64,000 nt of DNA, from the NCBI GenBank assembly GCA_001780725.1, contig MFIM01000001.1, positions 83,642-147,641 on the forward strand. The letters run 5' to 3'. The notes beneath the pieces are model-generated. The model ran no database searches and was not told the DNA's origin. It was given only the letters and a program-made list of their open reading frames with translations. Below, piece after piece: positions 8,412-28,189 of this stretch. The translations under genes were made by a program, and so were the position numbers. This DNA is from Candidatus Giovannonibacteria bacterium RIFCSPLOWO2_02_FULL_45_28. Its GTDB lineage: Bacteria; Patescibacteriota; Minisyncoccia; UBA11713; 2-01-FULL-45-33. Positions within the stretch are counted from its first letter, which is position 1, and every line of letters begins with the position of its first letter.

Positions 8412-8412
8412 A

Positions 8413-8808
8413 TTACCAAATCTCAAACAATATTTCACCTCCGACTTTTCCTTTTCTGGCCTCGCGGTCGGTCATAACTCCTTTTGGGGTAGAATAAACC
8501 GCGGCCTTAAATCCGTTTTTTGAGAAATAAATATCCCGCCAGCCGCGATAAGTACGGCGCGAGAGTTTGGAAACGCGCCGCACGCCGGAAATTTTCGGAT
8601 TGCCAGATTCATCATACAAAAACTTAACTTCAATGGATTGCCCGTTTTTTTTGCCTTTCAGAACTGCCGCGCCTAAGTATCCCGCTCGCCCCAAAGCCTT
8701 GGCGATTTCAAGCTTAATTCCGGAATAAGGAAAAGAAACGGCTTCCTTCTTGGACGCTTGAGCGTTCTTGATTCTTATTAACATGTCTGCAATTTGATCT
8801 GTTACCAT
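8413..8808 (-). CDS. rpsH: 30S ribosomal protein S8
   Basis: Canonical S8 N-terminus MVTDQIADMLIRIKNA. The ORF call extends 21 codons upstream into rpsZ and is rejected. Confidence 0.85.
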   Translation of the reverse strand: MVTDQIADMLIRIKNAQASKKEAVSFPYSGIKLEIAKALGRAGYLGAAVLKGKKNGQSIEVKFLYDESGNPKISGVRRVSKLSRRTYRGWRDIYFSKNGFKAAVYSTPKGVMTDREARKGKVGGEILFEIW

Positions 8809-8987
8809 GATGATTTTCTTATTCCAGGTATTAAGCCTTCGTTTGCCAATTCTCTGAAGCAAATGCGGCAAAGGTCAAAATCGCGCATATAGCCGCGTTT
8901 CCTGTGGCAACGAAAGCAACGCCTCACCACCCGGCTTTTGAATTTTGGCGGCTTTAGAGATCTTACGTATGTGGAAGTCTTAGCCAT
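8802..8987 (-). CDS. rpsZ: 30S ribosomal protein S14 type Z (zinc-binding)
   Basis: 61 aa with a CxxC...CxxC zinc ribbon (CFRCHRK...CRICFRE). Confidence 0.9.
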   Translation of the reverse strand: MAKTSTYVRSLKPPKFKSRVVRRCFRCHRKRGYMRDFDLCRICFRELANEGLIPGIRKSSW

Positions 8988-9525
8988 TTTTTTGCAGCGG
9001 AAAACCTAATAACCTTAATAGCTTCTCGGCTTCGCCGCGCTTTTTAGAATTCGTTACAACCGTAACCTCCAACCCAAAAATGTTGCGCACGTCTTCCCCT
9101 ATCATTTCAGGAAAGATGATATGCTCTTTTATGCCGATTGTCAAATTGCCTCCGTGATCAAGCGATTTTAAAGGAATCCCGCGAAAATCCCTTGTTCTGG
9201 GAATGGCGAAATTAATAAGCCTGTCAAGAAAATCATACATTTTTTGTCCGCGCAGAGTCACTTTATATCCAATGATCATCCCTTCTCGTGTCTTAAAAGA
9301 CGCAATCGCAATCCGCGCCGGCCGCGGCGAAGGTTTTTGGCCCGTAATCAAAGCGAGGTGTTTTTCAACTGTTTCTACGGCATCTTTCTTGTCGCGTATT
9401 TTTCCGGTGCCCACATTTACAACAACTTTCAAAATTCTCGGGACAGCCATCGGAGATTTTAATCCGAATTCCTTCATCATCTTCGGTACGGCTTCTTTTG
9501 TGTATTTTTCTTTAATTGATTGCAT
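8980..9525 (-). CDS. rplE: 50S ribosomal protein L5
   Basis: 181 aa. L5 family motifs. Position between L24 and S14. Confidence 0.9.
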   Translation of the reverse strand: MQSIKEKYTKEAVPKMMKEFGLKSPMAVPRILKVVVNVGTGKIRDKKDAVETVEKHLALITGQKPSPRPARIAIASFKTREGMIIGYKVTLRGQKMYDFLDRLINFAIPRTRDFRGIPLKSLDHGGNLTIGIKEHIIFPEMIGEDVRNIFGLEVTVVTNSKKRGEAEKLLRLLGFPLQKNG

Positions 9526-10635: not shown

Positions 10636-11046
10636 TTATCTGAATATAAATTTGGTTCTAACCGGCAATTTCGCGCCAGCCCGCCGCAAGGCATTCTCCG
10701 CAACCTCTTTTGGCACGCCGTCCATTTCAAAAATAATCCTCCCCGGCAAAACAGGAAAAACATATCCGGCGACATCCCCCTTTCCTCCGCCCATTGTAAC
10801 TTCCGGCGGTTTTTGGGTTATCGGCTTATCGGGAAAGATGCGTATCCAAATTTTACCTCCGCGCTCTACATAATGCGTCATCGCTTTTCTTGCGGCTTCC
10901 AGTTGTTTGGAGTTCACCCAGCATGCCTCTTCTGATCTAAGTCCGTAGGAGCCGAAAGCCAAAGTAACGCCGCGGGTTTCTTTAAGCTTCCTTTTGGTGG
11001 CCATTCTTTGCCATTTTCTAAATTTTACTCTTTTTGGTAAAAGCAT
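10636..11046 (-). CDS. rplP: 50S ribosomal protein L16
   Basis: 136 aa. [11 protein letters not shown]...[11 protein letters not shown]. Confidence 0.95.
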
Positions 11047-11055: not shown

Positions 11056-11730
11056 TTACTTAATCGGCTTATTGTTTTGAAGCACCTCGCCCTTATAAAT
11101 CCAGATTTTAATACCCAAATCTCCGTAAGGCAAATGCGCGCGGCCTTTAGCGAAATCTATGTCTGCGCGCAGAGTTGAGAGCGGCATCTGCCCCTCTTTT
11201 AACCATTCGTATCTGGCCATTTCCGCGCCGTCCAACCTTCCGGACAGGGCGATTTTCGCTCCCAAGACGCCGCGAGACGCCATAATTTTACTAATGGTTT
11301 GCTTCAAAACCCTCCTAAATGACAAGCGCTTCTCCAAATCCTGCGCCATAGATTCCACCATGATCATGGCGTGCTGTTCCGGAGCTTTTATTTCTTCAAT
11401 AGTCAGTTTGAGGTTGGCTTTGCCGAACATCTTTGCCTTAAAAAACTTCTCTATGTCTTTTTTTAATTTTTCGGCTCCTTCGCCGCCACGCCCTATGAGC
11501 ATGCCCGGCCTTGCGGTTTTTACTATTACATTGAGAGTTGACGGAGATCTTTCAATTTCAATAGAATCAACAAGCATGCCGCGCAGTTTTTTTTCTAAAA
11601 ATTCGCGCAGCAACACATCCTCCTTAAGCGGCCTCTTGAAATCTCGCCGCACAAACCAGCGCGACTTCCATGGCCGCAAGATTACTAACCTCATTGAATA
11701 TGGATGCGATGTGTGCGACATAAAATTCAA
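11056..11730 (-). CDS. rpsC: 30S ribosomal protein S3
   Basis: 224 aa. KH domain and S3 C-terminal domain motifs. Start could be 11721 or 11730. Confidence 0.9.
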   Translation of the reverse strand: MNFMSHTSHPYSMRLVILRPWKSRWFVRRDFKRPLKEDVLLREFLEKKLRGMLVDSIEIERSPSTLNVIVKTARPGMLIGRGGEGAEKLKKDIEKFFKAKMFGKANLKLTIEEIKAPEQHAMIMVESMAQDLEKRLSFRRVLKQTISKIMASRGVLGAKIALSGRLDGAEMARYEWLKEGQMPLSTLRADIDFAKGRAHLPYGDLGIKIWIYKGEVLQNNKPIK

Positions 11731-12437: not shown

Positions 12438-13274
12438 TTAGTTTTTGGTCCTCCGGCTAATAATAAATTTGGAAGAATATTTATTCGGATTTCTAGTTTT
12501 GACTCCGCGCGTCCCCTTCCCCCACTTATTTTTAGGACGGCGCGTGCCGCGGAGAGTTCTACCCTCTCCGCCTCCGTAAGGGTGATCTACCGGATTCATG
12601 GCCGAACCGCGCACCGTCGGGCGAATGCCCATAAGCCGCGACCTGCCCGCTTTCCCTATTACAACCAAGTTATTTTCTTCGTTTGAAACCTGGCCCACGG
12701 AGGCCCAAGCATCATCTTTTATTTTTCTAACTTCGCCGGACGGAAGTTTAATCGTTGCATAACCCTCATCTTTTGCTACAATCTCCGCAAAAGATCCAGC
12801 CGATCGCACCAATAGCGCATCGCCTTCCGAAGAAAGTGAGATGTTATAAATAAGCGTGCCGGGAAGCAGTTTGCTTAACGGCAAGCGATTGCCGGGAAGA
12901 ATCGGCGCTTTTTCGGAAACCAGAATCTCGCGGCCAGGGCGAACATCTTTAGGCAAAACCATATATCGTTTCTCGCCGTCTTTATAAATTACGAGCCCGA
13001 TAAACGCGGTGCGGTTTGGATCATACTCAACCGATGCCACGCGCGCAGGAATATCTTTTTTGTTAAATTTGAAATCTACCAGGCGCATGAGCCGCTTAGC
13101 CCCGCCTCCCTTGTGGCGAGTTGTAATTCTTCCGAGATTGTTTCTGCCGACATCGCGTTTCACTCCGAAAATCAAAGATTTTTCCGGATGCGGGCGTACG
13201 TGAGTCAAAAATTCCCGGTAGTTAATACCTGTCATTTGTCTCCTTCCCGGACTTCTTGGCGCAAAAGTTTTCAT
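12438..13274 (-). CDS. rplB: 50S ribosomal protein L2
   Basis: 278 aa. L2 signature [22 protein letters not shown] at the C-terminus. Confidence 0.95.
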
Positions 13275-13278
13275 AAAT

Positions 13279-13758
13279 TTAAAATTCCGAAATTGTTTGG
13301 CCTTCTTTTAATTTAATGACGGCTTTTTTAAATCCCGACTTAATCCCCAAATTCGCGCCGCGGCGCCGCTGTTTCTCTCTCGGAGCCACAATGTTCACGG
13401 CCTCAACACCGACTCCGTAGCGGTCTTCTATGGCTTTTTTTAGCGAATTTTTATTCGCGCCGCCGGTGACTTTAAAAACATATCTGCCTTCGCCCAACAT
13501 CGTCGCTTTTTCTGAAATGTGCGGAGCAATAAGCAATCTGCGCGCAAGCTCGCTTTGGGATTTTGTACCGCCTCGCGCGCCAACAGATTTGTTTTGTTCG
13601 GAAGCAGAAAAACCCACCCCCTCGCCCCCTCCCTTGGTAAGGGAGGGGGAAGATGGAGGGATACCCCTGCCCCTTTCGCGACCAGAACCAAGAGCTTTAC
13701 GCGTTCTGCTTTCTTTCCTCCTCCATCCTCCGAAAATTTGCGATAAATTAAACGGCAT
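13279..13758 (-). CDS. rplW: 50S ribosomal protein L23 (with ~65-aa Gly/Arg-rich N-terminal extension of uncertain translation)
   Basis: The L23 core begins around ...LIAPHISEKA. The upstream in-frame extension overlaps the rplD stop and contains a GC-rich palindrome (13626-13650). Confidence 0.8.
   Translation of the reverse strand: MPFNLSQIFGGWRRKESRTRKALGSGRERGRGIPPSSPSLTKGGGEGVGFSASEQNKSVGARGGTKSQSELARRLLIAPHISEKATMLGEGRYVFKVTGGANKNSLKKAIEDRYGVGVEAVNIVAPREKQRRRGANLGIKSGFKKAVIKLKEGQTISEF
13626..13650. repeat. GC-rich perfect palindrome CCCCCTCCCTT-GGT-AAGGGAGGGGG
   Basis: 11-bp arms with a 3-nt loop. Member of a CCCTCCC/GGGAGGG hairpin family that also clusters at 54965-55078. Confidence 0.7.
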
Positions 13759-14422
13759 AAGTTTTTTCTAATTCTTTAATGCTTGACTGGTCCAAAACCA
13801 AATATTTATTATTCAAAAGCTCCGCAATATTTAAATTTCTCGGTTCAATGTAATTTACAAAAGGCAAGTTATGAAGTGGTCTTTCTATCCCAGCTTTTTT
13901 TGGCCCGCCTGCCGGACGGGCAGGCAAAGCCGCCAAAACTCTGCCGCCTTTAATCCCGATGTTATAAATTTTTGCGCTGTGGCGCAAATTTTTAAAAACG
14001 CCGAAAGCCTCTTTTGTTTTTGAGCTAGAAAGCCGAAAATCATCCAAAACAACAACTTCCTTATCTTTTAATTTTCTGGAAAGCAGGGAAAGAAGCGCGC
14101 CTCGCCGCATTTTTTTATTTATTTTAACCTGATAATTTCTTTCGTTTCTAGGCCCGTGAGAAACTCCTCCGCCGACCCAGAGCGGCGAGCGTATTGAACC
14201 GTGCCGTGCCCTTCCGGTGCCTTTTTGCCGCCAGGGTTTTATTCCTCCGCCGCGCACTTCGCCTCTGGTCTTGGTGTGCGCCCATGGGCGGCGCTTGTTT
14301 GCCATTTCGCCTTCATATACTTGTTTTACCAATGCCGGTTTCCACGCAACTCCGAAAATCCGCTCCGGCAGTTCCGCAGTTCCGGCTTTTTCTCCTTTTA
14401 TGTTGTATATTTCTGCTTTCAT
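13748..14422 (-). CDS. rplD: 50S ribosomal protein L4
   Basis: 224 aa. L4 family (GGGVSHGPRNERNYQ; KKMRRGAL). Confidence 0.9.
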   Translation of the reverse strand: MKAEIYNIKGEKAGTAELPERIFGVAWKPALVKQVYEGEMANKRRPWAHTKTRGEVRGGGIKPWRQKGTGRARHGSIRSPLWVGGGVSHGPRNERNYQVKINKKMRRGALLSLLSRKLKDKEVVVLDDFRLSSSKTKEAFGVFKNLRHSAKIYNIGIKGGRVLAALPARPAGGPKKAGIERPLHNLPFVNYIEPRNLNIAELLNNKYLVLDQSSIKELEKTYAV

Positions 14423-14554
14423 AAAAATAAAAATGGGCGGGTAAAGTCCCGCCTCGCGAAATACACGAGCAAATCAGGCCATTAACCCTCTTTTTTGCCA
14501 AACCTATGCGTTATATTTAAGCCTCTCACAAGTGATTTAGATATTAGCATGGCC

Positions 14555-14580
14555 CAAAAACAGGCGCAAGACCTGTTTTT
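14555..14580. terminator. Bidirectional terminator-like hairpin (AAAAA-CAGGC-GCAAGAC-CTGTT-TTTTT)
   Basis: Short GC stem flanked by an A-run and a T-run. Immediately adjacent to the duplicated rplC 3' end. Confidence 0.4.
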
Positions 14581-14582
14581 TT

Positions 14583-14640
14583 ATCCTCTCACTTCCACCA
14601 AACTACCGCGGTGGCCGGGGATGGCGCCGGAGACGGCACC
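14583..14640. repeat. Duplicate of the rplC 3' end (direct repeat partner of 20095-20152)
   Basis: About 56 bp. Reverse-complement translation gives GAVSGAIPGHRGSLVEVRG*, identical to the L3 C-terminus. Only synonymous differences (CCC vs CCA, GGT vs GGC). Confidence 0.85.
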
Positions 14641-14788
14641 TTATATAGTCTTTTCTTGAGATAACTCAAATTTTTTGCAATTACAATTTTCATTTTAACA
14701 AAAATATGCGGGTGCGCGGAAAAGGGTAAGGTACTCTCTGTGAATAAAATACTTGTTGCTCTTTTTCTTTTTATTTGCTATCATTTGA

Positions 14789-15109
14789 ATGTATATGCAA
14801 ACGAAAGACATTCAAAAAATTAGAAAAGAATTGAATGATAGGAAAGCGATTCTCCGCTGCGCCAAGGAATTTAATATGGTGGGCGACCCGACGCGGCTCA
14901 AGATTTGCTATCTCTTGTGTCGGCATAAAGAGCTCGCGGTGGGCGAGATTTCAGAAATTATCGGCGTTTCTATTTCGGCTATTTCTCATACGCTCAAAAA
15001 GTTGCAAAAGGCTGGCATGGTTGAAAACCGCCGAGAATTCCGAACGGTCTATTACAAACTTAAACAAACGCCCCTTGCCGATATGCTCAAGGAGCGGCTT
15101 ACAACATAA
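14789..15109 (+). CDS. ArsR/SmtB-family metalloregulatory transcriptional repressor
   Basis: 106 aa. Winged HTH. CYLLC motif in the position of the ArsR metal-binding CVC site. Stop lies 4 nt before the MerA-like start. Confidence 0.75.
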   Translation: MYMQTKDIQKIRKELNDRKAILRCAKEFNMVGDPTRLKICYLLCRHKELAVGEISEIIGVSISAISHTLKKLQKAGMVENRREFRTVYYKLKQTPLADMLKERLTT

Positions 15110-15113
15110 CTTT

Positions 15114-16517
15114 ATGCAAAAATTTGACCTTATCATCATTGGTGGCGGTGCAGGGGCGTTTGCAGCGGCAATCCGCGCTAACGAGCTTAAAGCAAAAACT
15201 GCGCTCGTGAACGCTGGGCTTCCGCTCGGCGGCACTTGTGTCAATGTCGGGTGCGTCCCGTCAAAAACACTTCTCTATGCCGGTGAAATTTTGCACCACT
15301 CAAAACATCACGGCGTTGCCGGTGTTGAGCTTGAAGTGAAAAATTTTGATTTTCAGAAAGTCGTGCAAGACGAACTTTCTCTAGTGGAAAAATTACGCCA
15401 AGAAAAATACGAGAAAGTGCTAAAAAATTTAGAGTATGTAACGGCAATCGAGGGAAAAGCAAAATTTATTTCTCAAAATGAGGTGGAGGTGAACGGCGAA
15501 AAATTGAGTGCGGAAAAATTTATCATTGCCGCAGGCTCAACCGCCAGTGTACCGCCGATTGAGGGAATACGGGAAGCTGGTTTCATCACCCATATCGAAG
15601 CTCTTAAAATGCCAAAACAACCGAAAGAGTTGGTTGTCATCGGTGCGGGGCCTCTTGGTTTGGAATTTGCTCAAATGTTTGCGCGTTTTGGCACAAAAGT
15701 AACCATTTTACAGCGCGGCGATTCAATTTTTCCGCACTCTGAAAAGGCACTCACCGACCGCCTCGCCGAGATACTTGCAAAAGAAGGAATTACTATCAAA
15801 ACAAATGTTGAGGTAAAAAGCGCGCGCAAAGAGAGCGATAAAAGAATTGTTTCGTATCAAATCGGCGAGGCGCAAGAAGAAGTTTCCGCTGATGAAATAC
15901 TTTTGGCGGCAGGCAAAACGCCAAACACACAGGGACTTGGCCTTGATATCGCTGGCATTGAAATTGACAAGCGGCAAGCTGTTGCTGTCAATCAAAATTT
16001 TCAAACATCCAATAAGAACATCTTTGCGGTGGGCGATGTTACAAACGGTCCCTTGCGGCTTGAGCCGACCGCTGGACGCGAAGGCACGCTTGCCGCGGAA
16101 AACGCGCTCAAAGACACAACACTTTCCATTGATTACAACGCTGTACCTTACACCATTTTTACCGATCCCCAGCTTGCTGGTGTCGGCTTTACCGAAGACG
16201 AGCAAATGAAGCAGGTGGGCGTTTGCGCGTGCCGCACGGTTTCGTTTGAAAATGTGCCGAAAGCAATCATCATGCGCCGCACCGAAGGACTTATCAAAAT
16301 GGCGATTCATCCGCAAACAAAACAAATTTTGGGCGTTCACATTCTCGCACCAAACGCCGGGGAACTTATCGCCGAAGCGATGATGCTGGTCAAGAACGAA
16401 AACACGATTGACGATGTGGTGAACTCCTTGCCAATGTTCCCGACGCTATCCGAGGCGATAAAAATTGCCGCATTGTCATTTACCAAAGACATTTCTAAAT
16501 TAAGCTGTTGCGTATGA
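15114..16517 (+). CDS. merA: Mercuric reductase core (MerA-like class I pyridine nucleotide-disulfide oxidoreductase, no NmerA domain)
   Basis: 467 aa. FAD site GGGAGAFAAA. Redox-active GGTCVNVGCVPSK identical to the Tn501 MerA active site. C-terminal vicinal Cys pair ...KDISKLSCCV, as in MerA (KQLSCCAG). TPNT..GL and FTDPQ segments are shared with MerA. The 93-codon upstream extension of the ORF call (14835) is an overlapping-frame artefact. Confidence 0.8.
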   Translation: MQKFDLIIIGGGAGAFAAAIRANELKAKTALVNAGLPLGGTCVNVGCVPSKTLLYAGEILHHSKHHGVAGVELEVKNFDFQKVVQDELSLVEKLRQEKYEKVLKNLEYVTAIEGKAKFISQNEVEVNGEKLSAEKFIIAAGSTASVPPIEGIREAGFITHIEALKMPKQPKELVVIGAGPLGLEFAQMFARFGTKVTILQRGDSIFPHSEKALTDRLAEILAKEGITIKTNVEVKSARKESDKRIVSYQIGEAQEEVSADEILLAAGKTPNTQGLGLDIAGIEIDKRQAVAVNQNFQTSNKNIFAVGDVTNGPLRLEPTAGREGTLAAENALKDTTLSIDYNAVPYTIFTDPQLAGVGFTEDEQMKQVGVCACRTVSFENVPKAIIMRRTEGLIKMAIHPQTKQILGVHILAPNAGELIAEAMMLVKNENTIDDVVNSLPMFPTLSEAIKIAALSFTKDISKLSCCV

Positions 16518-17023
16518 ATAAACTTCAAGAAGTATATAGTGCAGTTAAGCAAGTGCTTGGAGAACAAATGTATGGTTTTATCGTTCTTTCGTTTGCGCTT
16601 TTATTTTTTGGATTGTTTGTTTTTATTCCTGTTGCCACGACTCCCGGCAATACGCTTGCGTTTCAACTATCAATTTTCCGCGTGCAAGATTACTTCTTGA
16701 TGGTATTTCTCGCTTTTTTGGTGGGGCTTAATTTTTCAATGAATATCTATGTTTGGAGAAAACGAAGACAATCGGTCAATATTTCTAAATCTGCGGCAAG
16801 CGGCACAGCGGCAGGATTCGGAGGAGCTTTTGCCGCAATTGTGGGAACCGCTACTTGCGCGTCGTGTCTTGCTTCTCTATTCGGTATTATGGGTTTGGGA
16901 ATCGGAAGTGTTGCGTTTGTTTTGAAGTATCAAACCCTCTTTCTTCTTGGCGCAATAGCCCTTGTGGTTATTTCCCTTTACTTTACCGCTAGAAAAATAA
17001 ACAGAGTATGCAATTCATGTTAA
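16508..17023 (+). CDS. Integral membrane protein with CxxC and C-terminal CxxC motifs (candidate metal transport component)
   Basis: 171 aa, ~4 TM helices. TATCASCL within a TM segment and a CNSC C-terminus. Start overlaps the MerA-like stop. Confidence 0.4.
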   Translation: MRMNKLQEVYSAVKQVLGEQMYGFIVLSFALLFFGLFVFIPVATTPGNTLAFQLSIFRVQDYFLMVFLAFLVGLNFSMNIYVWRKRRQSVNISKSAASGTAAGFGGAFAAIVGTATCASCLASLFGIMGLGIGSVAFVLKYQTLFLLGAIALVVISLYFTARKINRVCNSC

Positions 17024-17038
17024 AATGACATTAAATCT

Positions 17039-17632
17039 ATGGATAGAAATTTATTTCTTATCGCCGCTTTAATCATTGTAGCTGGAGGTGTCTATTTTTA
17101 TATCACCAACCAACTCGGCAAATCCCTGACAAACAATACTGCCTATAACGAAACTGGTACGGTTCAAACGGCATTAGCCGCTAAATTTGATTATTTATCT
17201 CAAAACGGAAACTCTTCTTGTTCCGCTTCGTTTAAGGAATCAATTCCGTCGTTACCCGCTGGAACGCGGCTTCAAGGTTCTTGTTGTTCGCCAATGGACT
17301 TTCATCGGTATACTGAACAGGTTGAAGGATTAAAAAAGTATTCGGACATTCCAGAAATTCCACCAGACCCGTATGATATTGAGGCAGGATTGGCTAAAAA
17401 ATTGTTGGGCTACTATGATGTGGAACTCACGCCCGAAAAACAGAAAGCATACGACTACGCTATGCTTAACTCAAACGAGAAAGGACCTTGCTGCTGCAAA
17501 TGCTGGCGTTGGTATGTCTACGGCGGATTAGGTAAATACCTTATTAAAAATCATGGCTTCACCGGCGAGCAAGTAACTGAGGTATGGAATCTCTCTGATG
17601 GTTGTGGCGGCGACAACGAGCATACTCATTAA
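17039..17632 (+). CDS. N-terminally membrane-anchored Cys-rich extracytoplasmic protein
   Basis: 197 aa. One N-terminal TM helix. Clusters SCS, GSCCSP, GPCCCKCWRW, DGCGGDNEHTH. Confidence 0.4.
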   Translation: MDRNLFLIAALIIVAGGVYFYITNQLGKSLTNNTAYNETGTVQTALAAKFDYLSQNGNSSCSASFKESIPSLPAGTRLQGSCCSPMDFHRYTEQVEGLKKYSDIPEIPPDPYDIEAGLAKKLLGYYDVELTPEKQKAYDYAMLNSNEKGPCCCKCWRWYVYGGLGKYLIKNHGFTGEQVTEVWNLSDGCGGDNEHTH

Positions 17633-17647
17633 AACTTAAGTAGAGTT

Positions 17648-18622
17648 ATGACATCTAAAATTCGTAACAGCTTAATCATTTTTTCTTTCCTTCTCCTCTC
17701 GATCACCATCATCGGCATTTTTTGGCTTGTTACCACGCCCGGAGCGCAAGCTGGCCTCATTTTCGCCTACGCAGCCGGACTTTCCATGATTTTTCTTCCT
17801 TGCACCCTGCCTTTAGTATTCGTCATTGTGCCTCTGGCAATGAAGCAATCACCGCTCAAAGGGCTTACGATGGCATTACTTTTCGGATTGGGACTTGCCA
17901 TTACGCTTAGTATCTACGGCGCGGCTGTCGCTTGGGTAGGCGGATATATTGGCATGAACGCCATTATTCGCTGGATGTTTGGAATTGCCGGAGCAATGGC
18001 ATTTGTTTTTGGACTCTCCGAATTAAAACTTCTTGCCTTGCGCCTGCCTTTTATGGCAAAAGTGCTGCCGACTTCGCTTCAAAAAGGCGGCAATTACTCA
18101 AAATCGTTTTTCATGGGCCTTTTCTTGGGCAATGCCGGCGTGGGCTGTCCCAATCCCGCTTTCTATGTACTACTTACATATATTGCAACCGTAGGAACAG
18201 TAAGCGACGGTGTTCTTTTGGGAGTGGTGCATGGCTTGGGAAGAGCCACGCCACTTATCTTTCTTGTCATCCTTGCCATTCTTGGCATCAACACCATGAA
18301 TTGGGTCAGCCGCTCGCAGGTAAAAGTTGAACGGTTTATGGCGTGGGGGTTGGTCGGCATAGGCGCATATCTTTTTCAATATCTGCCGTTTAAGATGGCA
18401 TTTTGGGAGGGCTCAATCTTTCATGTTATCTGGAACAACATCGTGAGCAAAACCTTGCCGAGCATAGCCGAAAGCGAGAGAATTGAAGAACTGCTGAACA
18501 TTCAAGGAGGCACCGCCACCATTTTGCCGTGGGTGTTTATTGGGCTTATGGTCGGAGCGGTGATTATTTGGGACGCGTTTGTTCAACGTAAAAAGTTATC
18601 ACAAAATCAAGTTATACAATGA
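17648..18622 (+). CDS. CcdA/DsbD-family thiol-disulfide transporter (cytochrome c biogenesis-type membrane protein)
   Basis: 324 aa polytopic. The two conserved TM cysteines (FLPCTLP and GVGCPNP) typical of the DsbD beta-domain/CcdA family. Confidence 0.7.
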   Translation: MTSKIRNSLIIFSFLLLSITIIGIFWLVTTPGAQAGLIFAYAAGLSMIFLPCTLPLVFVIVPLAMKQSPLKGLTMALLFGLGLAITLSIYGAAVAWVGGYIGMNAIIRWMFGIAGAMAFVFGLSELKLLALRLPFMAKVLPTSLQKGGNYSKSFFMGLFLGNAGVGCPNPAFYVLLTYIATVGTVSDGVLLGVVHGLGRATPLIFLVILAILGINTMNWVSRSQVKVERFMAWGLVGIGAYLFQYLPFKMAFWEGSIFHVIWNNIVSKTLPSIAESERIEELLNIQGGTATILPWVFIGLMVGAVIIWDAFVQRKKLSQNQVIQ

Positions 18623-18798
18623 ACACAATGTTTTCAATAATCCAAGTCGCTTACGCCCACGAAGAAGGGGCGAGTACCGCAACAGCCGACAACACCCTCG
18701 GTCCCATTTTAGCGTTGGTTATTATTATCTTGGCCATAGTCGTAGCCAAGCGCATTAAAAAGATTAATAAAGAAAATCATTATGAACAAAGAAATTAA
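18619..18798 (+). CDS. Small membrane protein (59 aa)
   Basis: Not in the ORF track. ATG overlaps the CcdA-like stop (ATGA). Hydrophilic N-terminus followed by one TM helix (ILALVIIILAIVVA). Confidence 0.3.
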   Translation: MNTMFSIIQVAYAHEEGASTATADNTLGPILALVIIILAIVVAKRIKKINKENHYEQRN

Positions 18799-19048
18799 AA
18801 TGACCCTCGTTACCCGCGAAGGGTGCGTTCATTGCGCGCAGACCAAAGAAATTCTTAAAAAGATACAGCCCGAGTATCCCGAACTTGCGGTGGAAGAAAT
18901 AGATATGACCACGCCCCAGGGGCAAGAACTTATCAGTAAATACGGAATTATGTCGAGTCCGGGGATTATTATTAACGGCGAGCTGTTCTCTATAGGCGGA
19001 ACTACGGAAAAGGAATTAAGAGAGAAATTTGTCGCATTAAGGAGTTAA
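18782..19048 (+). CDS. Glutaredoxin/thioredoxin-fold CxxC protein
   Basis: 88 aa. CVHC redox motif near the N-terminus. Glutaredoxin-like YruB/NrdH architecture. True start may be the internal Met at ~18800. Confidence 0.7.
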   Translation: MNKEIKMTLVTREGCVHCAQTKEILKKIQPEYPELAVEEIDMTTPQGQELISKYGIMSSPGIIINGELFSIGGTTEKELREKFVALRS

Positions 19049-19425
19049 ATTTTGTAGCCCGCCAAAAAATCCGCCAGCCCAAGCGAGGGCGCGGCGGAAG
19101 GAGGGTGTGGGAGAATTTCGCCGCACCCGAGCGGAAACATCAGCACGCCTCCGCCTGCTCGTTTAGAGCAGAACGCCGAAAGCAAAATTTTCTTTTCCTT
19201 TAGAAGAAAAAATTGGTGGCGCGCGCAAAAAAAGAATCGTAAAGAAAATTTTGCTTGAGGCGTAGCCCCGCCTTTGGCGGGGCGCGGAGGCGTTCGTCAG
19301 AGTAAGACATTTTTGCTAAAATAGGTTCGAGCGTGGTTGTATAGATACACCATGTTATAATAAAAACATCGGCTCGAACCATATTTTAATTTTGGGGGAA
19401 GAAAATTTTTTTTCCATGTTAGTTA

Positions 19426-19851
19426 TCAAACCTTAATTGGGATAATTTCAAAAGTATTATGGTCGCGTTCAAACTTTATTCGGTAATTATCAAAAAAACC
19501 GATTTGCCCCAATAAAGCATGAACTGCCAGGTTGGGCACAAAACCAACTTCAACTTTTACTTTGTCCGTGAATTCTTTGATTTTGATATCAACGTCAATA
19601 AAATGTGTTTCCATCGCTTTGCCATCTATGCCCGTTACGCTCTCTTTCTTTTTGGCTTTGTCCAGATTTATACCAACGTATTTTGCAAATTCAGCGTTTA
19701 TTAAAATATTATCTGCCCCAGAATCCACCAGCGCTCCAAAAATAGAAACATTCTTTAAAGGTCCAAACAACTCAATCTCTATAATTGGTCGTCTCCTGTG
19801 AGGAGCTGTTGGTTTTGATGGATCAAATACAGCAGAGTACTGATATTTCAT
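19426..19851 (-). CDS. Retropepsin-like (clan AA) aspartic protease
   Basis: 141 aa. ALVDSGADNILI catalytic motif. Confidence 0.6.
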   Translation of the reverse strand: MKYQYSAVFDPSKPTAPHRRRPIIEIELFGPLKNVSIFGALVDSGADNILINAEFAKYVGINLDKAKKKESVTGIDGKAMETHFIDVDIKIKEFTDKVKVEVGFVPNLAVHALLGQIGFFDNYRIKFERDHNTFEIIPIKV

Positions 19852-20075
19852 AAACTCGAAGGCGCCAAATTTGCTCCGAGCGGTAATACCTTCGAAAACG
19901 CCACTCTGCTTTGAAGCACACTGTCTATTTTAGAAGCCGTTTCCTCAAGAGTTTCTCCACTAGCTATAATCTTTGTTCGGTCAGGAGAAAGCGCCACCCA
20001 TTTATTTTCGTATGGCTTAAGAATTGAGCTTAAATCGGGCATTTTTACAATGTTTTCTTCTTGTGTTTTTGACAT
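19848..20075 (-). CDS. Small DUF5678-like protein partnered with the retropepsin-like gene
   Basis: 75 aa. KWVALSPDRTKIIASGETLEE pattern. Overlaps the downstream protease gene start. Confidence 0.45.
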   Translation of the reverse strand: MSKTQEENIVKMPDLSSILKPYENKWVALSPDRTKIIASGETLEETASKIDSVLQSRVAFSKVLPLGANLAPSSL

Positions 20076-20094
20076 ATGCTTAAATATAACACAC

Positions 20095-20682
20095 TTATCC
20101 TCTCACTTCCACCAAACTGCCGCGGTGGCCTGGGATGGCGCCGGAGATGGCCATAAGATTTTTTTCGGGAATGATTTTGATGATTTTGAGATTGCTGACG
20201 GTGACGCGTTCCGCACCCATGTGCCCGGCCATGCGCATGCCTTTTAAAACTCTTTGCGGCCAAGTTGCGCCGATTGATCCCGGCTCGCGCTCGGAATGTT
20301 TTTGTCCGTGAGTTCTAGGTCCGCCGTGGAAACCATGACGTTTTACAACGCCCTGAAAACCTTTGCCTTTTGAAACGCCACTGACATTTACAAAGTCGCC
20401 CTCCTCAAAAGCGGTTGCCTCAATTTTGTCGCCCACATTTAAAGCGCTGGTTTTAAACTCGCGAAAATACTGAAAATTTCCCAATTTTTTCTGCGGCTTT
20501 TCTACGTTTTTTCCCTTTTTCGCGCTAAACCCGACCTGTACGGCAACGTATCCGTCCTTTTCTTCAGATTTTTTTTGCGTAACAAAAATGGGGCCGGCTT
20601 CCAGCCAAGTAACCGGTTGAACCCGTCCATTACCGTCAAAAATTTGCGACATCTCAATTTTTCTCGCCAAAATAAATTTCAT
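20095..20682 (-). CDS. rplC: 50S ribosomal protein L3
   Basis: 195 aa. L3 family. Directly downstream of rpsJ. Confidence 0.95.
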   Translation of the reverse strand: MKFILARKIEMSQIFDGNGRVQPVTWLEAGPIFVTQKKSEEKDGYVAVQVGFSAKKGKNVEKPQKKLGNFQYFREFKTSALNVGDKIEATAFEEGDFVNVSGVSKGKGFQGVVKRHGFHGGPRTHGQKHSEREPGSIGATWPQRVLKGMRMAGHMGAERVTVSNLKIIKIIPEKNLMAISGAIPGHRGSLVEVRG

Positions 20683-20683
20683 A

Positions 20684-21025
20684 TTACACCTTTATCTCAA
20701 TGTCCACCCCTGCCGGCAAGTTAAGATTGGTCATCGCCTCCACAACTTTCGGGGTGGGATCTAAAACATCAATCAAGCGCTTGTGAACCCGCATTTCAAA
20801 CTGCTCACGGGCATTTTTGTGGACAAACGAAGAACGATTAACCGTATATTTGCGAATTTCAGTAGGCAACGGCACCGGTCCTGCCAGCTCCGCTCCGTAC
20901 CGTAGGGCAGTATCTACTATTTGCCTCACTGACGAATCCAAAATTTTGTGGTCATACGCCCTTACGCGTATCCTCAATTTTTGCTTTTCCTCAACTGCTT
21001 TTTCTTTTGGCTTGGCTTTGGCCAT
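20684..21025 (-). CDS. rpsJ: 30S ribosomal protein S10
   Basis: 113 aa. [14 protein letters not shown]...VPLPT... S10 signature. Confidence 0.95.
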
Positions 21026-21028
21026 TTA

Positions 21029-22222
21029 TTATTTATTGATCTTGGTGACCACACCAGCGCCGACGGTTTTGCCTCCCTCTCTGATTGCAAACCTTTGTTT
21101 TTCTTCCAAAGCCACAGGCGCGATAAGTTTTACGGAAAATTTGATAGTATCTCCCGGCATCACCATCTCCGTGCCTTGCGGCAAAGTTACGTCTCCCGTC
21201 ACATCAGTGGTGCGGATATAAAACTGTGGCTTATATCCGCTGAAAAACGGGGTGTGCCTGCCGCCCTCTTCTTTAGTCAAAATATAGACTTCCGCGTCAA
21301 ATTCAGTGTGTGGAGTGATAGATCCGGGCTTTGAGATAACTTGTCCGCGCTCCACATCTTCCTTTTTGACGCCGCGAAGCAAAATTCCCGCGTTGTCTCC
21401 GGCCAAGCCTTCATCCAATTGCTTGTTAAACATCTCTATGCCGGTTACCACTGTTTTTTGGGTATCGTGAAGACCCACTATCTCCACTTCATCGTTTAAT
21501 TTAACTTTGCCTCTTTCAATCCTTCCGGTAACCACAGTGCCGCGGCCTTCAATGGAAAACACGTCTTCAACAGGCATAAGGAATGGCCTGTCAATATCGC
21601 GAACCGGTTCCGGAATATATTCGTCCAACTGCTTTGCAAGTTCCAAAATCGGTTTTGCCCACTCATCTTCCGCTGATTTGACTTCCAAGGCTTTCAAAGC
21701 CGAGCCGCGGATAATCGGAGTTTTGTCTCCCGGGTATTCATATTTAGTCAAAAGCTCACGGACTTCGGTTTCAACCAAGTCAACCAATTCTTTGTCGTCC
21801 ACCGCGTCAACTTTGTTTAAGAAAACAATAATTGCCGGCACGCCGACTTGGCGCGCAAGAAGTATGTGCTCTCTTGTCTGCGGCATCGGGCCGTCAGCAG
21901 CCGAAACAACCAAAACTGCGCCGTCCATCTGCGCCGCGCCAGTAATCATATTTTTGATGTAGTCCGCATGCCCCGGAGCGTCAATGTGCGCGTAATGGCG
22001 CTTGTCGGTTTCATACTCCGAATGGTGAAGAGCTATGGTAATTCCGCGCTGGCGCTCTTCGGGAGCGTTATCAATATCTTCAACCTTTTCCACTCTCGCC
22101 TTTTTGCCGGCTAAATTAAGCACGTGCAAAATTGACGCTGTTAGCGTGGTTTTGCCGTGGTCAACATGGCCGATTGTGCCCACGTTAAGATGGGGCTTTG
22201 TCCTCTCAAATTTCTCCGCCAT
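21029..22222 (-). CDS. tuf: Elongation factor Tu
   Basis: 397 aa. [18 protein letters not shown] GTPase motifs. Confidence 0.97.
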
Positions 22223-22313
22223 AAATTTATTTAAAAATTAGCGCTTATAAAAGCCAATACGCATTTTCAGCGTATAATCCGTATATTATAGGATGATAAA
22301 ACCCCTGTCAAGG

Positions 22314-22342
22314 CGCAAAAAAACCCCGACACAAGGTCGGGG
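22314..22342 (-). terminator. Rho-independent terminator (CCCCGAC-ACAAG-GTCGGGG plus U-run on minus strand)
   Basis: 7-bp GC stem preceded on the plus strand by AAAAAAA. Downstream of the small minus-strand ORFs and upstream of tuf. Confidence 0.55.
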
Positions 22343-22370
22343 CGAGGCGGCTAAACTAGCCGCAGGTTTC

Positions 22371-22547
22371 TTACAACATTATTAATTTAACGATAAGGAA
22401 CAAAATGTAAGCTATTGATAATAGGGATAAAAACCAGGAAAATTTGGCAATCCAAACCAGATGTCTCTCCAGCCAAAATCTTTGTGGAACAACCGCCCGA
22501 TAAACCGTCATCAAAATAGCTCCGAAAATTCCAGCAAGGAACATCAT
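22371..22547 (-). CDS. Small membrane protein (58 aa)
   Basis: Not in the ORF track. Two predicted TM helices. ATG overlaps the stop of the 68-aa ORF upstream. Followed by a terminator. Confidence 0.35.
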   Translation of the reverse strand: MMFLAGIFGAILMTVYRAVVPQRFWLERHLVWIAKFSWFLSLLSIAYILFLIVKLIML

Positions 22548-22750
22548 CCTTGTTCACCCCCTTGATGCGTTGTTAGAAAAGTTTTTTCTTCGGCAGAAAG
22601 CTTTTTGAAAATTGCCGACAGTTTTTGCCAAATCTCTTTGGCTTCCGGATCGTTTTGACGCCTCTGCTTTTCAAAAACTTTTAGAATAAACTGAAGCCGT
22701 AAAAATTCTTCTAATTTCTTGCTCTGCCCGTACTCAACGCCTTTGGGCAT
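22544..22750 (-). CDS. Hypothetical protein (68 aa)
   Basis: Charged helical ORF. No recognised motif. Confidence 0.3.
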   Translation of the reverse strand: MPKGVEYGQSKKLEEFLRLQFILKVFEKQRRQNDPEAKEIWQKLSAIFKKLSAEEKTFLTTHQGGEQG

Positions 22751-22758
22751 AAATCACC

Positions 22759-23019
22759 TCACTGCCATCGAGACATCACTCCAGCATTTCCAGTCACGCT
22801 CACTACCACCTGTCCATAATGATCGTCAATGCGCACCACTCCGCCACCGCGAGAGATAAGAATGGCGGCATTAACATCTTTTGGAACGATTATCTTCGTG
22901 CCATCGGTAAATTCCATACCGACAACGTTTCCGTCGCTAAGCTCAAGCGATTTTATAGTCCTCACTATTCTACCTCCTATTCTAAACCAAAGCTTATCAC
23001 TAAACCGGCAGGTCGTCAA
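22759..23019 (-). CDS. Hypothetical protein (86 aa)
   Basis: ORF with no recognised motif. Confidence 0.3.
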   Translation of the reverse strand: MTTCRFSDKLWFRIGGRIVRTIKSLELSDGNVVGMEFTDGTKIIVPKDVNAAILISRGGGVVRIDDHYGQVVVSVTGNAGVMSRWQ

Positions 23020-23234
23020 GCCCCACTTCTTCGTCTAGATTTTCTGCAAGCAGTTTGTCAGACAAAATTTTTTCTTCTTGTTGTAATTCTATATTTTCGT
23101 TTTCCATAAATTATACCAATTCTAAAATCTTTGAACGAAGCTTGCAAGCATTCCCGTGCTTCAACAAGCCAAGATAAGAATTTAGAGTATCCGCCATATT
23201 ATTTTCTTGTAATCTTCTCATCATCCGCCTTTTT

Positions 23235-23540
23235 GTGCTTGTCCGCAAAACTCATAGACATTCTTTAGGCCAGCGCATTGACGCGTTTTTTATTGAAATT
23301 ATGGAAGCGATTGCGGTTGCGAGTTTTCTTTCGCGAGAAGAAAAACTGCCTTATATCAGATTGGCTATGCGAAAAACGGACGCGCTGAAAATACTGCTTA
23401 TGGTACTTTGGGAAACCAAATCTTTGGACAATAAAAAATATGCCGCGTTGTCGATCAAAATAATCGAAATTGGAAAAATGCTGGGCGGATGGAGCGGACA
23501 GATACAAAAACAAAACTCTCCCAAAACGGGAGAGAAATGA
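23235..23540 (+). CDS. avd: Four-helix-bundle protein of the 23S rRNA IVS / DGR accessory variability determinant (Avd) family
   Basis: 101 aa (start may be further upstream at a non-ATG codon). LVRKTHRHSLGQRIDAF... and C-terminal IIEIGKMLGGWSGQ resemble Bordetella phage bAvd (IAEVGRILGSWIAR). Confidence 0.65.
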   Translation: MLVRKTHRHSLGQRIDAFFIEIMEAIAVASFLSREEKLPYIRLAMRKTDALKILLMVLWETKSLDNKKYAALSIKIIEIGKMLGGWSGQIQKQNSPKTGEK

Positions 23541-23546
23541 AAAGAG

Positions 23547-23673
23547 TTGCCGAAGCGGAGAGCGGGATTGTTAGAATACCAGCTGTAGCCCAACCAGCAC
23601 CAGAGCAACACGACCTCGTCGCCGTACTCGCAGAGATACGGGACATTCAGGTTGCCGTTGCGGTTCTGCACGA
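23547..23673 (-). repeat. DGR template repeat (TR)
   Basis: 127 bp homologous to the 3' end of the target gene (24052-24178). Carries adenines (AAC codons, sense = minus strand) at 11 of the 13 positions where the two copies differ. Confidence 0.75.
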
Positions 23674-24047
23674 AATGTATGGGATTTCATCTGTGCCACT
23701 GCCCTTTGAGTGCTCTTGGAGCTGTATCGTATTCGGCATAGCAATGCCTTAAAACCCCACACCAAGTATATTCATTTTTTATGAAGTGCTGCATACACCG
23801 CTCTATTTGAAACCTTGATCGCAAATATTCCGGATATATGGATACTGGGTTCGGTAGCAAGAAACCTTAATTTCCTGCGTATTCACCTACTGCCATTTTT
23901 GATGGTAGCACAAAAAAGAAAAGCCCCCGATGTTCTGGGGGCTGGAGTTCTGCGCTATTCTCCACAGCGTTTGGCATTATGCCAGTTCGGAAGGACAAAG
24001 GTTCAAGCGTCCAAGCGCAGCAGGACACAGGAGCCAATGTCTAAGTT

Positions 24048-24710
24048 CTACTTGCTGAAGCGGAGAGCGGGATCGTTAGAATACCAGCTGCAGCCCAACC
24101 AGTACCAGAGCAACACGACCCCGCCGCCGTACCCGCAGAGACACGGGACATCCAGGCGGCCGTAGCGGTCCTGCACGACCGACTTCCACCCAAACACCGT
24201 CTTGCCTGCATATAACTTGCGGAACACAGCAATGCCCTTGGTTTGGATGGCCAGGAGGTCGGCCAGTCCGAGGCAATCGGCAAGAGCATTGTCCTTCTGA
24301 AGATGCTTGTAAATCGCGTTGCCGATCGCAACTCCCGTTTTCTGGTCATTGTGGAGCCAAAGCCCGACCGCGGCGTTGAGGTTGTATTCGGCGGGTCCAA
24401 CGAGCTCCAATTCGGGATGCATCACTTTCTTCATCCAGCCGGGATAGCTCGGTTTGACCGAGCGGTCCACGCTGATAATGAAGTCAAGTAACACCTCGGG
24501 AGCGGGGACAACATCTCCAACGGTTACTAGGCGCTCAATCGGCTTGATCTCGCTGAAACCGTTGAGTACGGCCTTGATGGTCCCGAGATCATACTTCCTT
24601 AATTTGGTTACCTCCTCGACACTAAATCCCGCCTTTTCCAGAGCATCGGCCAGTTGGTTCATATGGCCGATAGAATACAGAGTAGACATAATCTTCCTCC
24701 CTTTGGACAT
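24048..24710 (-). CDS. DGR target (variable) protein, 220 aa
   Basis: C-terminal 42 codons form the variable repeat ...QDRYGRLDVPCLCGYGGGVVLLWYWLGCSWYSNDPALRFSK. The TR encodes N at the diversified positions. Confidence 0.65.
   Translation of the reverse strand: MSKGRKIMSTLYSIGHMNQLADALEKAGFSVEEVTKLRKYDLGTIKAVLNGFSEIKPIERLVTVGDVVPAPEVLLDFIISVDRSVKPSYPGWMKKVMHPELELVGPAEYNLNAAVGLWLHNDQKTGVAIGNAIYKHLQKDNALADCLGLADLLAIQTKGIAVFRKLYAGKTVFGWKSVVQDRYGRLDVPCLCGYGGGVVLLWYWLGCSWYSNDPALRFSK
24052..24178 (-). repeat. DGR variable repeat (VR) at the target gene 3' end
   Basis: Pairs with the TR. Substitutions are confined almost entirely to TR adenine positions (AAC to GAC, TAC, CGC). Confidence 0.75.
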
Positions 24711-24921
24711 GTTCCTTTCTAGAACTCGTCCGTTTGCTGTTTTAATTTGACTTTCGCCACAGCCCCGACATGACTTTTTATAAGCCAGTTCGGGGCTACG
24801 GCAAAGCGCAAGTTAACGTATTAAAGAGCTACGCCCCAATTATACACCCGAAAGGTTTAAAAGTCAATAGCTGAAAATCCTTTATTTTATAAGGGTTTTT
24901 TGGGTAATTATAGCTTTCGCG

Positions 24922-27640: not shown

Positions 27641-27676
27641 AATATAATGCTAGCACAAAAGTTTTAAAAATGCAAT

Positions 27677-27961
27677 CTACTTAGATTTTTTATAAATCTC
27701 GTGCGTGCCGATGTTTAAATAAACTACAACATTATCATTCACAAAATAAAAATGAATGCGGTAGTCTTTATTTACCGAATATGCCCAGTCGTTCTTAAGC
27801 TTTCCGCCAAGTTTATGAGTTTCTAAAGAAGGATGAAATGCGTTTTGCCGAAAAATCTTATCTTTGTTTGCCGCTAATTTTTGGACGACTTTAGGCAACC
27901 GCTCAAAATTCTTTTCAAAAAGAGAGGTGTGTTCTACCCCGAAGATCCTCCGTGGTGTCAT
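27677..27961 (-). CDS. RelE/ParE-family type II toxin
   Basis: 94 aa. C-terminal WAYSVNKDYRIHFYFVNDNVVVYLNIGTHEIYKK matches the RelE/ParE fold consensus. Confidence 0.6.
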   Translation of the reverse strand: MTPRRIFGVEHTSLFEKNFERLPKVVQKLAANKDKIFRQNAFHPSLETHKLGGKLKNDWAYSVNKDYRIHFYFVNDNVVVYLNIGTHEIYKKSK

Positions 27962-28167: not shown

Positions 28168-28189
28168 AAAATTATTTTAACACAAAATA

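Follow-up and report, generated by a model that had tools for sequence, protein, structure and literature searches.

The window analysed here is a 64,000-nt stretch of contig MFIM01000001.1 from Candidatus Giovannonibacteria bacterium RIFCSPLOWO2_02_FULL_45_28 (assembly GCA_001780725.1), which belongs to the Candidate Phyla Radiation (CPR). In its ribosomal protein cluster, rplC and rplD are separated by 5,457 nt of horizontally acquired DNA with foreign cargo, an island that carries a mercury resistance (mer) operon and a small two-gene unit and is bounded by two copies of the rplC 3′ end. The features from rpsJ to rplD, read in the direction of the ribosomal genes, are as follows (ORF, open reading frame).

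20684-21025, minus strand: rpsJ (ORF list).
20095-20682, minus strand: rplC, intact, encoding ribosomal protein L3 of 195 aa (ORF list; PF00297).
20095-20151, minus strand: working repeat copy, the last 57 nt of rplC including the TAA stop (repeat search, BLAST).
19848-20075, minus strand: DUF5678-like small gene (weak Pfam match, E 3e-4, below cut-off).
19426-19851, minus strand: gene for a retropepsin-like (clan AA) aspartyl protease, overlapping the DUF5678-like gene; GC 0.37 (PF13975/PF13650 above cut-off).
19056-19352, minus strand: segment A, about 300 nt, non-coding and strongly structured (blastn, 73-79% identity; RNAalifold).
18782-19048, plus strand: thioredoxin/glutaredoxin-like protein of 88 aa with CxxC (PF13192, PF00462).
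18619-18798, plus strand: small membrane protein of 59 aa (ORF list; called in independent annotations).
17648-18622, plus strand: CcdA/DsbD-type transmembrane thiol-disulfide electron transporter of 324 aa (PF02683, PF13386).
17039-17632, plus strand: Cys-rich membrane-anchored protein of 197 aa (no Pfam or NCBIfam family match).
16514-17023, plus strand: membrane protein with a weakly MerT-like C-terminal half containing a Cys pair (PF02411, E 2e-4; NF010314, E 4e-4; both below cut-off).
15114-16517, plus strand: merA, mercury(II) reductase (full-length TIGR02053 equivalog, 531.8 bits against a cut-off of 454.45).
14789-15109, plus strand: ArsR/SmtB-family metalloregulator, head of the mer operon (PF01022; NF033788 above cut-off).
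14713-14788, plus strand: conserved mer promoter/operator region (nucleotide homology to the mer modules of loci L103, L104, and L105 stops sharply at 14713).
14638-14712, no strand: AT-rich junction filler of 75 nt that separates the displaced rplC end from the mer module (blastn gave no homology).
14581-14637, minus strand: displaced rplC 3′ end, 57 nt, 54 identical (repeat search, Hamming scan, BLAST).
14556-14580, minus strand: terminator-like hairpin AAAAACAGG-TCTTGCG-CCTGTTTTT, directly past the displaced stop (alignment).
14423-14555, minus strand: native rplD upstream region, also present in the uninterrupted relatives L009 and L095 (alignment and terminator scan).
14541-14549, minus strand: extended -10-like motif TGCTAATAT (alignment).
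14522-14534, minus strand: conserved CACTTGTGAGAGG (alignment).
14436-14453, minus strand: second hairpin with T-run just ahead of the rplD ATG (terminator scan).
13748-14422, minus strand: rplD (L4), the first gene downstream of the island (ORF list and independent annotation).

The two rplC ends form a direct repeat of 57 nt with 54 identical positions at a spacing of 5514 nt, found by a repeat search of the window and recovered by self-BLAST of its full length (E=4e-18). The repeat ends at the TAA stop and rplC stays intact, so that the 3′ end of the target gene is restored in the manner of a site-specific integrative element. Both copies encode SGAIPGHRGSLVEVRG* in the rplC frame, and the displaced copy retains the frame and its TAA stop and is itself preceded by an in-frame TAA. 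Two differences lie within the 16 shared codons (CCA/CCC and GGC/GGT) and are synonymous, while the third (ATC/GTC, Ile/Val) sits at the 5′ edge of the repeat. A first-pass annotation of this DNA had already proposed that the island was gained horizontally and is framed by duplicated rplC 3′ ends, and this is supported. Its statement that the copies share an identical peptide and differ only synonymously holds for the 16 codons but not for the edge codon; its coordinates for the displaced copy (14583-14640) are about 2 nt off; and that copy, which it placed next to the rplD start, in fact ends 158 nt before the ATG of rplD.

No third copy of the 48-nt core of the rplC end was found at a threshold of at least 27 of 48 matches in a Hamming scan of both strands of the whole window, and an extra degenerate copy that would split the island into cassettes was rejected at the same threshold. 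A 13-nt perfect inverted repeat GTTATATTTAAGC (20069-20093 and 14507-14531) was considered as a transposon terminal inverted repeat; we take it as a chance or promoter-like similarity because one arm lies outside the direct repeat, in the conserved native leader, and the pairing is not shared by relatives. An origin of the rplC repeat in a diversity-generating retroelement (DGR) was discarded as well, since the displaced copy reads C, T, and G, and not adenine, where the two copies differ, which is the wrong pattern.

Everything between the repeats (14638-20094) is non-ribosomal by Pfam and NCBIfam, and most of it (14789-19048) lies on the strand opposite to the ribosomal genes, both as the first-pass annotation had stated. 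The MerA protein has the CVNVGC active site and the C-terminal CC and is the core enzyme without an NmerA domain. The membrane protein encoded after it is a candidate Hg(II) importer, so that Hg(II) would be taken up by the MerT-like protein and then reduced by MerA. The CcdA/DsbD, thioredoxin-like, and Cys-rich proteins may serve extracytoplasmic thiol redox or metal binding, with the 197-aa Cys-rich protein a candidate extracytoplasmic metal- or thiol-binding protein.

At the rplC side of the island, the DUF5678-like gene begins 20 nt past the rplC stop, behind the extended -10-like TGTGTTATATT. With the retropepsin-like gene it probably forms a two-gene toxin-antitoxin (TA)-like or addiction-like unit, and such a module may aid retention of the island. 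The rplC end and the DUF5678 gene together are colinear with L097 8645-8934 (81.6% nucleotide identity by blastn), a related locus in which the DUF5678 gene comes after the displaced rplC fragment. Segment A is a conserved companion of the CPR ArsR-MerA module: it lies directly upstream of ArsR in L103 (8273-8582) and L105 (8062-8243), and in the window it is inverted and found at the opposite end of the mer operon. RNAalifold predicts a long consensus structure for it (-72 kcal/mol), with a few compensatory pairs among three sequences only; an Rfam scan of 13000-22500 returned nothing relevant for either segment A or the rplD leader. Segment A might act as an RNA, as an origin, or as a site of recombination.

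The foreign origin of the cargo is supported by both composition and homology. The tetranucleotide distance of the island is 0.180 compared with 0.128±0.010, and none of 94 same-size segments reaches the island value, while GC content (0.437 vs 0.448) says nothing about foreignness; of the comparisons suggested in the first pass, that of tetranucleotides was informative and that of GC content was not. MerA homologues with 82-93% amino acid identity occur in many CPR classes, including Saccharibacteria, Magasanik-, Berkel-, Nealson-, Vogel-, Harrison-, Kerfeld-, and Zambryskibacteria, and even in Margulisiibacteriota, and the L3 proteins of such MerA-carrying lineages are just ~50-60% identical to that of the window. 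At the nucleotide level, 14713-16521 is 81-83% identical to L103, L104, and L105, rising to 92% over the ArsR part of L105 (blastn). These three loci share one outer boundary of the mer module, at 14713, and differ in their transporter genes (none, MerT+HMA in L104, or MerF in L105). No relatives of the rplC-end motif, of MerA, or of the retropepsin-like protein were found in viral contigs. Mercury reductases of CPR bacteria have been catalogued before, including 10 Giovannonibacteria entries (PMC8261052). The ArsR-MerA core circulates among many CPR lineages, and the island is composite: a TA-like unit travelling with an rplC end, plus a mer module.

The arrangement is reproducible. The order rplC-island-rplD was present in all 24 of the longest contigs read with an identical L3 protein (7 distinct places shown) and in 24 of 24 of the longest contigs read with an identical L4 protein (4 distinct places shown). 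These contigs come from groundwater metagenomes and from JGI, ENA, and NCBI assemblies of many samples, among them independent MEGAHIT assemblies, and the NCBI genomes with this locus include GCA_001780605.1 and GCA_001778395.1. The RIFCS and GW2011 genomes stem from the aquifer at Rifle, where a metal mill once stood. A search through the identical rplD protein met no empty-site allele in its 24 longest contigs. An assembly artefact is rejected, because every long contig read shows one and the same structure across many samples and assemblers. More broadly, it is extremely improbable that the second rplC end arose by duplication in situ or by an artefactual or chimeric join: just 3 differences separate the window copies and all contigs are metagenome assemblies, as such an origin would have it, but the same structure recurs in independent MEGAHIT, JGI, and NCBI assemblies, the 3 differences cut the repeat into exact runs of ≤24 nt and so preclude a single collapsed graph node, the copies of other species carry many synonymous differences, unlike post-duplication decay, and the cargo is compositionally foreign and common to distant CPR classes.

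One further contig, L008 (ERZ27254767 k141_2146535, 8330-9190), is 99.7-100% identical to the window until about nt 330 of rplC. Beyond that point it has a very different rplC 3′ third, an opposite-strand 84-aa gene, and an rplD with no more than 47% identity. Either this is a strain whose recombination breakpoint falls within rplC, or the contig is chimeric.

Eight related species were sampled at rplC/rplD. Homologues of the L3 protein are 72-91% identical to it, and those with names belong to Ca. Giovannonibacteria. The uninterrupted rplC-rplD junction that the first-pass annotation had advised seeking was found in L009/L010 and L095, where rplC is followed directly by rplD across a spacer of 150-170 nt. 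This spacer is conserved in six species, two of them uninterrupted (alignment of the window, L009, L011, L012, L095, and L097), and contains four conserved elements: a post-stop hairpin with T-run, ATGCTAnnAT, CACTTGTGnGA, and a second hairpin with T-run before the rplD ATG. The loop of the first hairpin, CTTGCG, is invariant in all six. Of 75 diverse bacteria, about 60 have only 5-30 nt between rplC and rplD, which makes the long spacer a feature of the lineage. That background comes from an L3 scan of genome contigs, which was used for rplC-rplD spacing only and was also the source of L012; it returned mostly distant phyla because the back-translated patterns are too conserved.

A sigma-70 consensus scan upstream of rplD found no two-hexamer promoter, and the proposed rplD promoter is the conserved extended -10-like motif alone, promoter and terminators alike being sequence motifs. 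Judged by these motifs, the rplC/rplD boundary in this lineage is a native terminator-plus-promoter-like spacer. In the window the spacer is intact and contiguous with the displaced rplC copy. The first-pass annotation had argued that the insertion uncouples rplD and makes a new promoter necessary; the ~150-nt spacer already exists in L009/L010 and L095, and because the displaced copy is still joined to it, no new rplD promoter would be needed. Since the boundary appears to be natively of this kind, the site would tolerate cargo with both ribosomal units left intact, and the native terminator and promoter-like elements may likewise insulate the island. The rplD leader with its two hairpins may be an L4-type autoregulatory attenuator. 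Further along the cluster, the longest rplW ORF (13279-13758, 159 aa) has a low-complexity N-terminal extension of about 85 aa, which NCBI leaves out in calling a protein of 73 aa. The stretch of about 250 nt that separates rplD from rplW may therefore be non-coding or repeat DNA.

The rplC/rplD junction is a recurrent insertion hotspot. Six of the eight related species carry differing cargo between the two genes, and a displaced rplC end is retained in five.

L011: an antitoxin-like and HigB-like pair, then three further genes; displaced end of 48 nt (9093-9140), encoding GAIPGNRGSLVEVRG*, between the two cassettes.
L012: a lone gene for a small secreted protein, which has a promoter and a terminator of its own; displaced end of 48-54 nt (11128-11172), directly before the native hairpin.
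L097: three TA-like cassettes (DUF5678 plus membrane protein; SocA/Panacea pair; HicAB); displaced fragment at 8614-8687, a 24-nt remnant at 10719-10742, and an extra copy of the hairpin/promoter.
L106/L107: a 217-aa gene; displaced end of 22 nt (L106 8368-8389).
L108/L109: two small genes; displaced end of 57 nt (L108 8204-8260).

The insertion in L012 measures 0.7 kb, and its cargo is a single 0.4-kb gene. Old rplC 3′ fragments are kept downstream in the same orientation, sometimes as ordered or nested arrays. The right edge of each repeat is the stop codon. The left edges (-57, -57, -54, -54/-48, -48, -24, and -22) are clustered but not constant, and independence of the underlying events is uncertain. 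A conserved block, AAAATCATTCCCGAAAAAAATCT, lies just upstream of the rplC-end repeat, while no conserved element-end sequences were seen at the distal ends of the cargo. A pattern scan of metagenome contigs yielded 3 loci only, all of them copies of species already sampled. In L097, a 19-nt perfect palindrome CTGCCTGCCGGCAGGCAGG (8626-8644), which resembles a miniature insertion, splits the displaced rplC fragment.

The same kind of scar is present at two other genes of the window, identified by self-BLAST and a scan of gene ends.

6299-6352, minus strand: displaced rpsE 3′ end, 54/54 identical to 6964-7017.
2111-2182, minus strand: displaced 3′ end of map (Met aminopeptidase), ~72 nt, 90% identical to 2610-2681.

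The rpsE copies enclose a DUF433 and DUF5615/PIN TA pair (6357-6946). The displaced map end retains its ORF, and the two map copies are separated by small membrane ORFs of the opposite strand. Both repeats stop at the stop codon. When every gene end in the cluster was scanned, no displaced gene ends were found after the insertions at rpsG or fusA.

Sequence comparison of working and displaced ends indicates that the two copies diverged inside functional genes. Pooled over rplC in five species and map, the pairs differ at 45 synonymous and 23 non-synonymous positions (pN/pS 0.17, binomial p=1e-12 for departure from neutrality). The working rplC of L097 is 85-93% identical to its relatives at the nucleotide level but only 65-72% over the last ~54 nt, and it is the displaced fragment that resembles the rplC ends of relatives. 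From the mostly synonymous differences and this 3′-end discordance, we conclude that the copies diverged within functional genes and that one of them came from another lineage. The cross-species pN/pS upholds the two-allele idea of the first-pass annotation. Its view that a local tandem duplication does not fit is supported as well.

No recombinase that could account for these insertions was detected. Pfam searches found none among all ORFs of the island, which agrees with the first-pass observation that the island lacks an integrase, none within ±10 kb of it (precomputed Pfam), and none among ten otherwise unidentified ORFs of the window, the remaining window ORFs being judged by eye. Likewise, the gene tables of L009, L011, L095, L097, L106, and L108 contain none at rplC-rplD, and the L012 insertion, read as sequence, holds just one gene, for a small secreted protein. 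Among the ORFs recognised by eye is a PilB-like ATPase (56821-58470).

The main rival of the explanation favoured below is that a tyrosine or serine recombinase, since lost or acting in trans on a cis-mobilizable element (CIME) or mobilizable island, uses an attachment (att) site in the rplC 3′ end, with the attP end rebuilding the gene. [quoted passage not shown] Left edges between -48 and -57 in 5 of 7 fragments, the clean insertion at about -54 in L097, the resemblance of the nested arrays to tandem accretion, and a large serine recombinase 7 kb from the mer locus of L104 would all agree with it. On the other side stand the absence of a recombinase from the island, from ±10 kb, and from the gene tables of six related species; an inconstant repeat length (22, 24, 48, 48-54, 57, and 57 nt); the three specificities that rplC, rpsE, and map would require within one 20-kb stretch; cargo as small as the single 0.4-kb gene of L012; cargo distal ends without conserved element ends; and the absence of the rplC-end motif from viral contigs. 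We therefore regard a site-specific recombinase as unlikely, and a dedicated rplC-specific att system in particular is disfavoured by the repeat lengths of 22-57 nt, the scars at rpsE and map, and the lack of a recombinase at the site.

The clustered left edges can also be read as the trace of a homing-like process, in which a nuclease would cut the 3′ ends of essential genes some 50-57 nt before the stop, repair would copy in a recoded, cleavage-immune end together with cargo, and end joining would leave the displaced fragment. Shorter fragments would then be resected ends, and the rpsE repeat is of similar length. The working end of L097 is heavily recoded (20 of 42 nt changed, nearly all synonymous), and free-standing GIY-YIG genes are found between conserved genes of the same ribosomal clusters in L009 and L095. 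Yet neither the island nor the insertions observed at the site contain a nuclease gene, the window ends differ at 3 nt only, which hardly amounts to immunity through recoding, the repeat at map extends further (about 72-86 nt), and the model is wholly inferential. We give it little credence.

The explanation we favour, with modest confidence, is a family of integrase-free, homology-anchored routes by which the resident gene end is displaced. Donor DNA would bring its own rplC 3′ end with cargo behind it, and homologous exchange in the conserved body of rplC would turn the incoming end into the working end. The far side of the cargo would then be joined non-homologously, or via very short homology, inside the resident rplC, so that the last 57 nt of the resident gene are pushed downstream, still attached to the native rplD terminator, promoter-like motif, and leader. 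The displaced copy would accordingly be the resident, native end, and the DNA may have entered through competence. Three variants of this route would fit: homology-facilitated illegitimate recombination (HFIR) of linear DNA after its uptake, Campbell-type entry of a fragment in circular form, and break repair copied from the donor and followed by end joining. The circular element with Campbell-type or site-specific crossover that the first-pass annotation had put forward would be one possible route. Displacement by an anchor plus an illegitimate join has been proposed to produce arrays of orphan 3′ ends at type VI secretion system (T6SS) effector-immunity and Rhs loci (PMC5361080), and Patescibacteria are reported to have competence and homologous-recombination genes, with ribosomal-protein genes among those they transfer most frequently (PMC12455944). 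Gene-body-anchored recombination without an integrase fits best with the stop-codon edge, the variable upstream extent, the several targets, the heterogeneous cargo ends, the xenologous alleles, the ordered arrays, and the missing recombinase.

Several observations weigh against this preference. Simple illegitimate joining predicts no clustering of left edges, so a favoured place for the break or crossover is hinted at by the 5 of 7 displaced rplC fragments that start between -48 and -57 and by the rpsE repeat, which is also 54 nt long. In L097, a clean insertion placed the foreign end and 10 nt at about -54 without costing the resident gene any sequence, which is more suggestive of precise insertion than of joining at random. 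The rpsE repeat is 100% identical and gives no sign of two alleles, and for the window pair alone the synonymous bias of 3 differences is without statistical significance. In the species tested, HFIR occurs at frequencies orders of magnitude below those of ordinary homologous recombination (PMC5361080), and competence of this organism is an assumption. Finally, neither a donor sequence nor an empty-site allele nor a circular form was found, and direction and route were therefore not directly observed.

A bolder possibility, which we consider doubtful, is that Patescibacteria possess a dedicated cassette-insertion mechanism, based on a trans-acting recombinase or on a homing-type nuclease with break-copy repair, that opens the ends of essential genes about 50-57 nt before the stop and installs a replacement end with cargo. 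Were this true, ribosomal-protein operons would be integron-like platforms spreading TA, defence, and resistance genes across CPR classes.

Other small insertions and repeats were observed in the ribosomal clusters and elsewhere in the window. A pair made up of a 69-aa ORF and a HigB-like gene lies with a 178-aa ORF between rpsG and fusA (27104-28190), and several small ORFs lie between fusA and tuf (22250-24900); in relatives, free-standing GIY-YIG genes occupy comparable positions (L009 5136-5399; L095 1290-1553). Repeat families of ~90-145 nt occur among the ribosomal-protein genes of other Patescibacteria (L013 11973-19697; L051 9321-12753; L009 9381-9523 and 12828-12972) and in almost none of ~50 non-CPR loci. 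Downstream of fusA, a 127-nt repeat (24052-24178 and 23547-23673, 89.8% identical) lies at the 3′ end of a 220-aa target ORF (24048-24710, minus strand). Of its 14 core mismatches, 12 fall at adenines of the downstream copy, the signature of a DGR variable and template repeat (VR/TR) pair, and an Avd-like (bAvd) gene adjoins it (23235-23540, plus strand), with no reverse transcriptase seen within ±10 kb. Lastly, a palindromic element of ~54 nt (GAAGTCCGACTTC...GAAGTCGGACTTCTTCCCGG), reminiscent of the Rickettsia palindromic elements, is inserted in frame in three unrelated housekeeping genes recognised by eye, adding KSDF..KKSDFF peptides. It occurs at 43880-43933 in uvrB, at 45693-45746 in a holA-like ORF (45432-46301), and, inverted, at 40090-40143 in a murE-like ORF (39698-41008).

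Taken as a whole, the locus is a sequence-level record of adaptive gene gain, here mercury detoxification, by genome-reduced, integrase-poor CPR bacteria, with the ends of their most conserved essential genes as landing pads and no element-encoded recombinase seen. It suggests that CPR bacteria acquire genes here without an integrase of their own. If the pattern is general, one could search for displaced gene ends to map events of this kind throughout Patescibacteria and to trace the mechanism responsible. There are also cautions for other uses of these genes: the ribosomal-protein genes employed in phylogenomics and in judging the quality of metagenome-assembled genomes can carry mosaic 3′ ends, kilobase-sized inserts are possible beside them, and the 'S10 operon' of this lineage is natively split before rplD by a terminator/promoter spacer.

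An island with a duplicated target-gene end and a mer operon are each of already-known kinds. The integrase-free, recurrent, multi-gene pattern of displaced ends in CPR ribosomal operons appears to be an undescribed variant, for which a literature search gave no equivalent. It shares with integrase-driven islands, ICEs, IMEs, and CIMEs, which derive from such elements but lack the integrase (at streptococcal rplL and rpsI, and at tRNA genes), cargo directly behind an essential gene, a gene-end direct repeat that leaves the ORF intact, resistance and TA-type cargo, and tandem or nested arrangements. Unlike those elements, it has no integrase, relaxase, or conserved element ends, either here or at the same site in the relatives examined, and it combines repeats of 22-57 nt with three target genes in 20 kb and inserts down to ~0.5 kb. 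Orphan Rhs/CdiA toxin tips and T6SS effector-immunity arrays, which have been attributed to HFIR (PMC5361080), likewise have a conserved upstream anchor, an incoming end that takes over together with its cargo, no integrase, and old 3′ fragments pushed downstream in the same orientation as ordered arrays. Here, by contrast, an essential gene, ribosomal or housekeeping, serves as anchor and has a conserved end and not a polymorphic one, the displaced piece measures just 22-86 nt and has no function of its own, and the cargo is unrelated to the anchor gene.

Hotspots of horizontal gene transfer flanked by core genes, and cassette exchange by transformation, also place lineage-specific cargo at one junction and turn it over without mobile-element genes, but a plain double crossover leaves no duplicated gene end, whereas the scars described here record at least one non-homologous or single-crossover step. 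Integrons resemble the arrays in their ordered, small, often promoter-poor cassettes with repeats between them and frequent TA genes; they differ in IntI, attI, and the imperfect palindromes of attC type, none of which is present here, where the repeats are fragments of coding sequence. As for the cargo, the mer module shares with canonical mer operons (Tn21/Tn501, and the ArsR-regulated operons of Thermus and archaea) a MerA equivalog with both cysteine pairs and, as candidates, a metal-responsive repressor at its head and a membrane protein with a MerT-like Cys pair. It departs from the canonical form in having an ArsR/SmtB rather than a MerR regulator, in lacking NmerA, MerP, and MerB, and in its additional CcdA/DsbD, thioredoxin-like, and Cys-rich genes.

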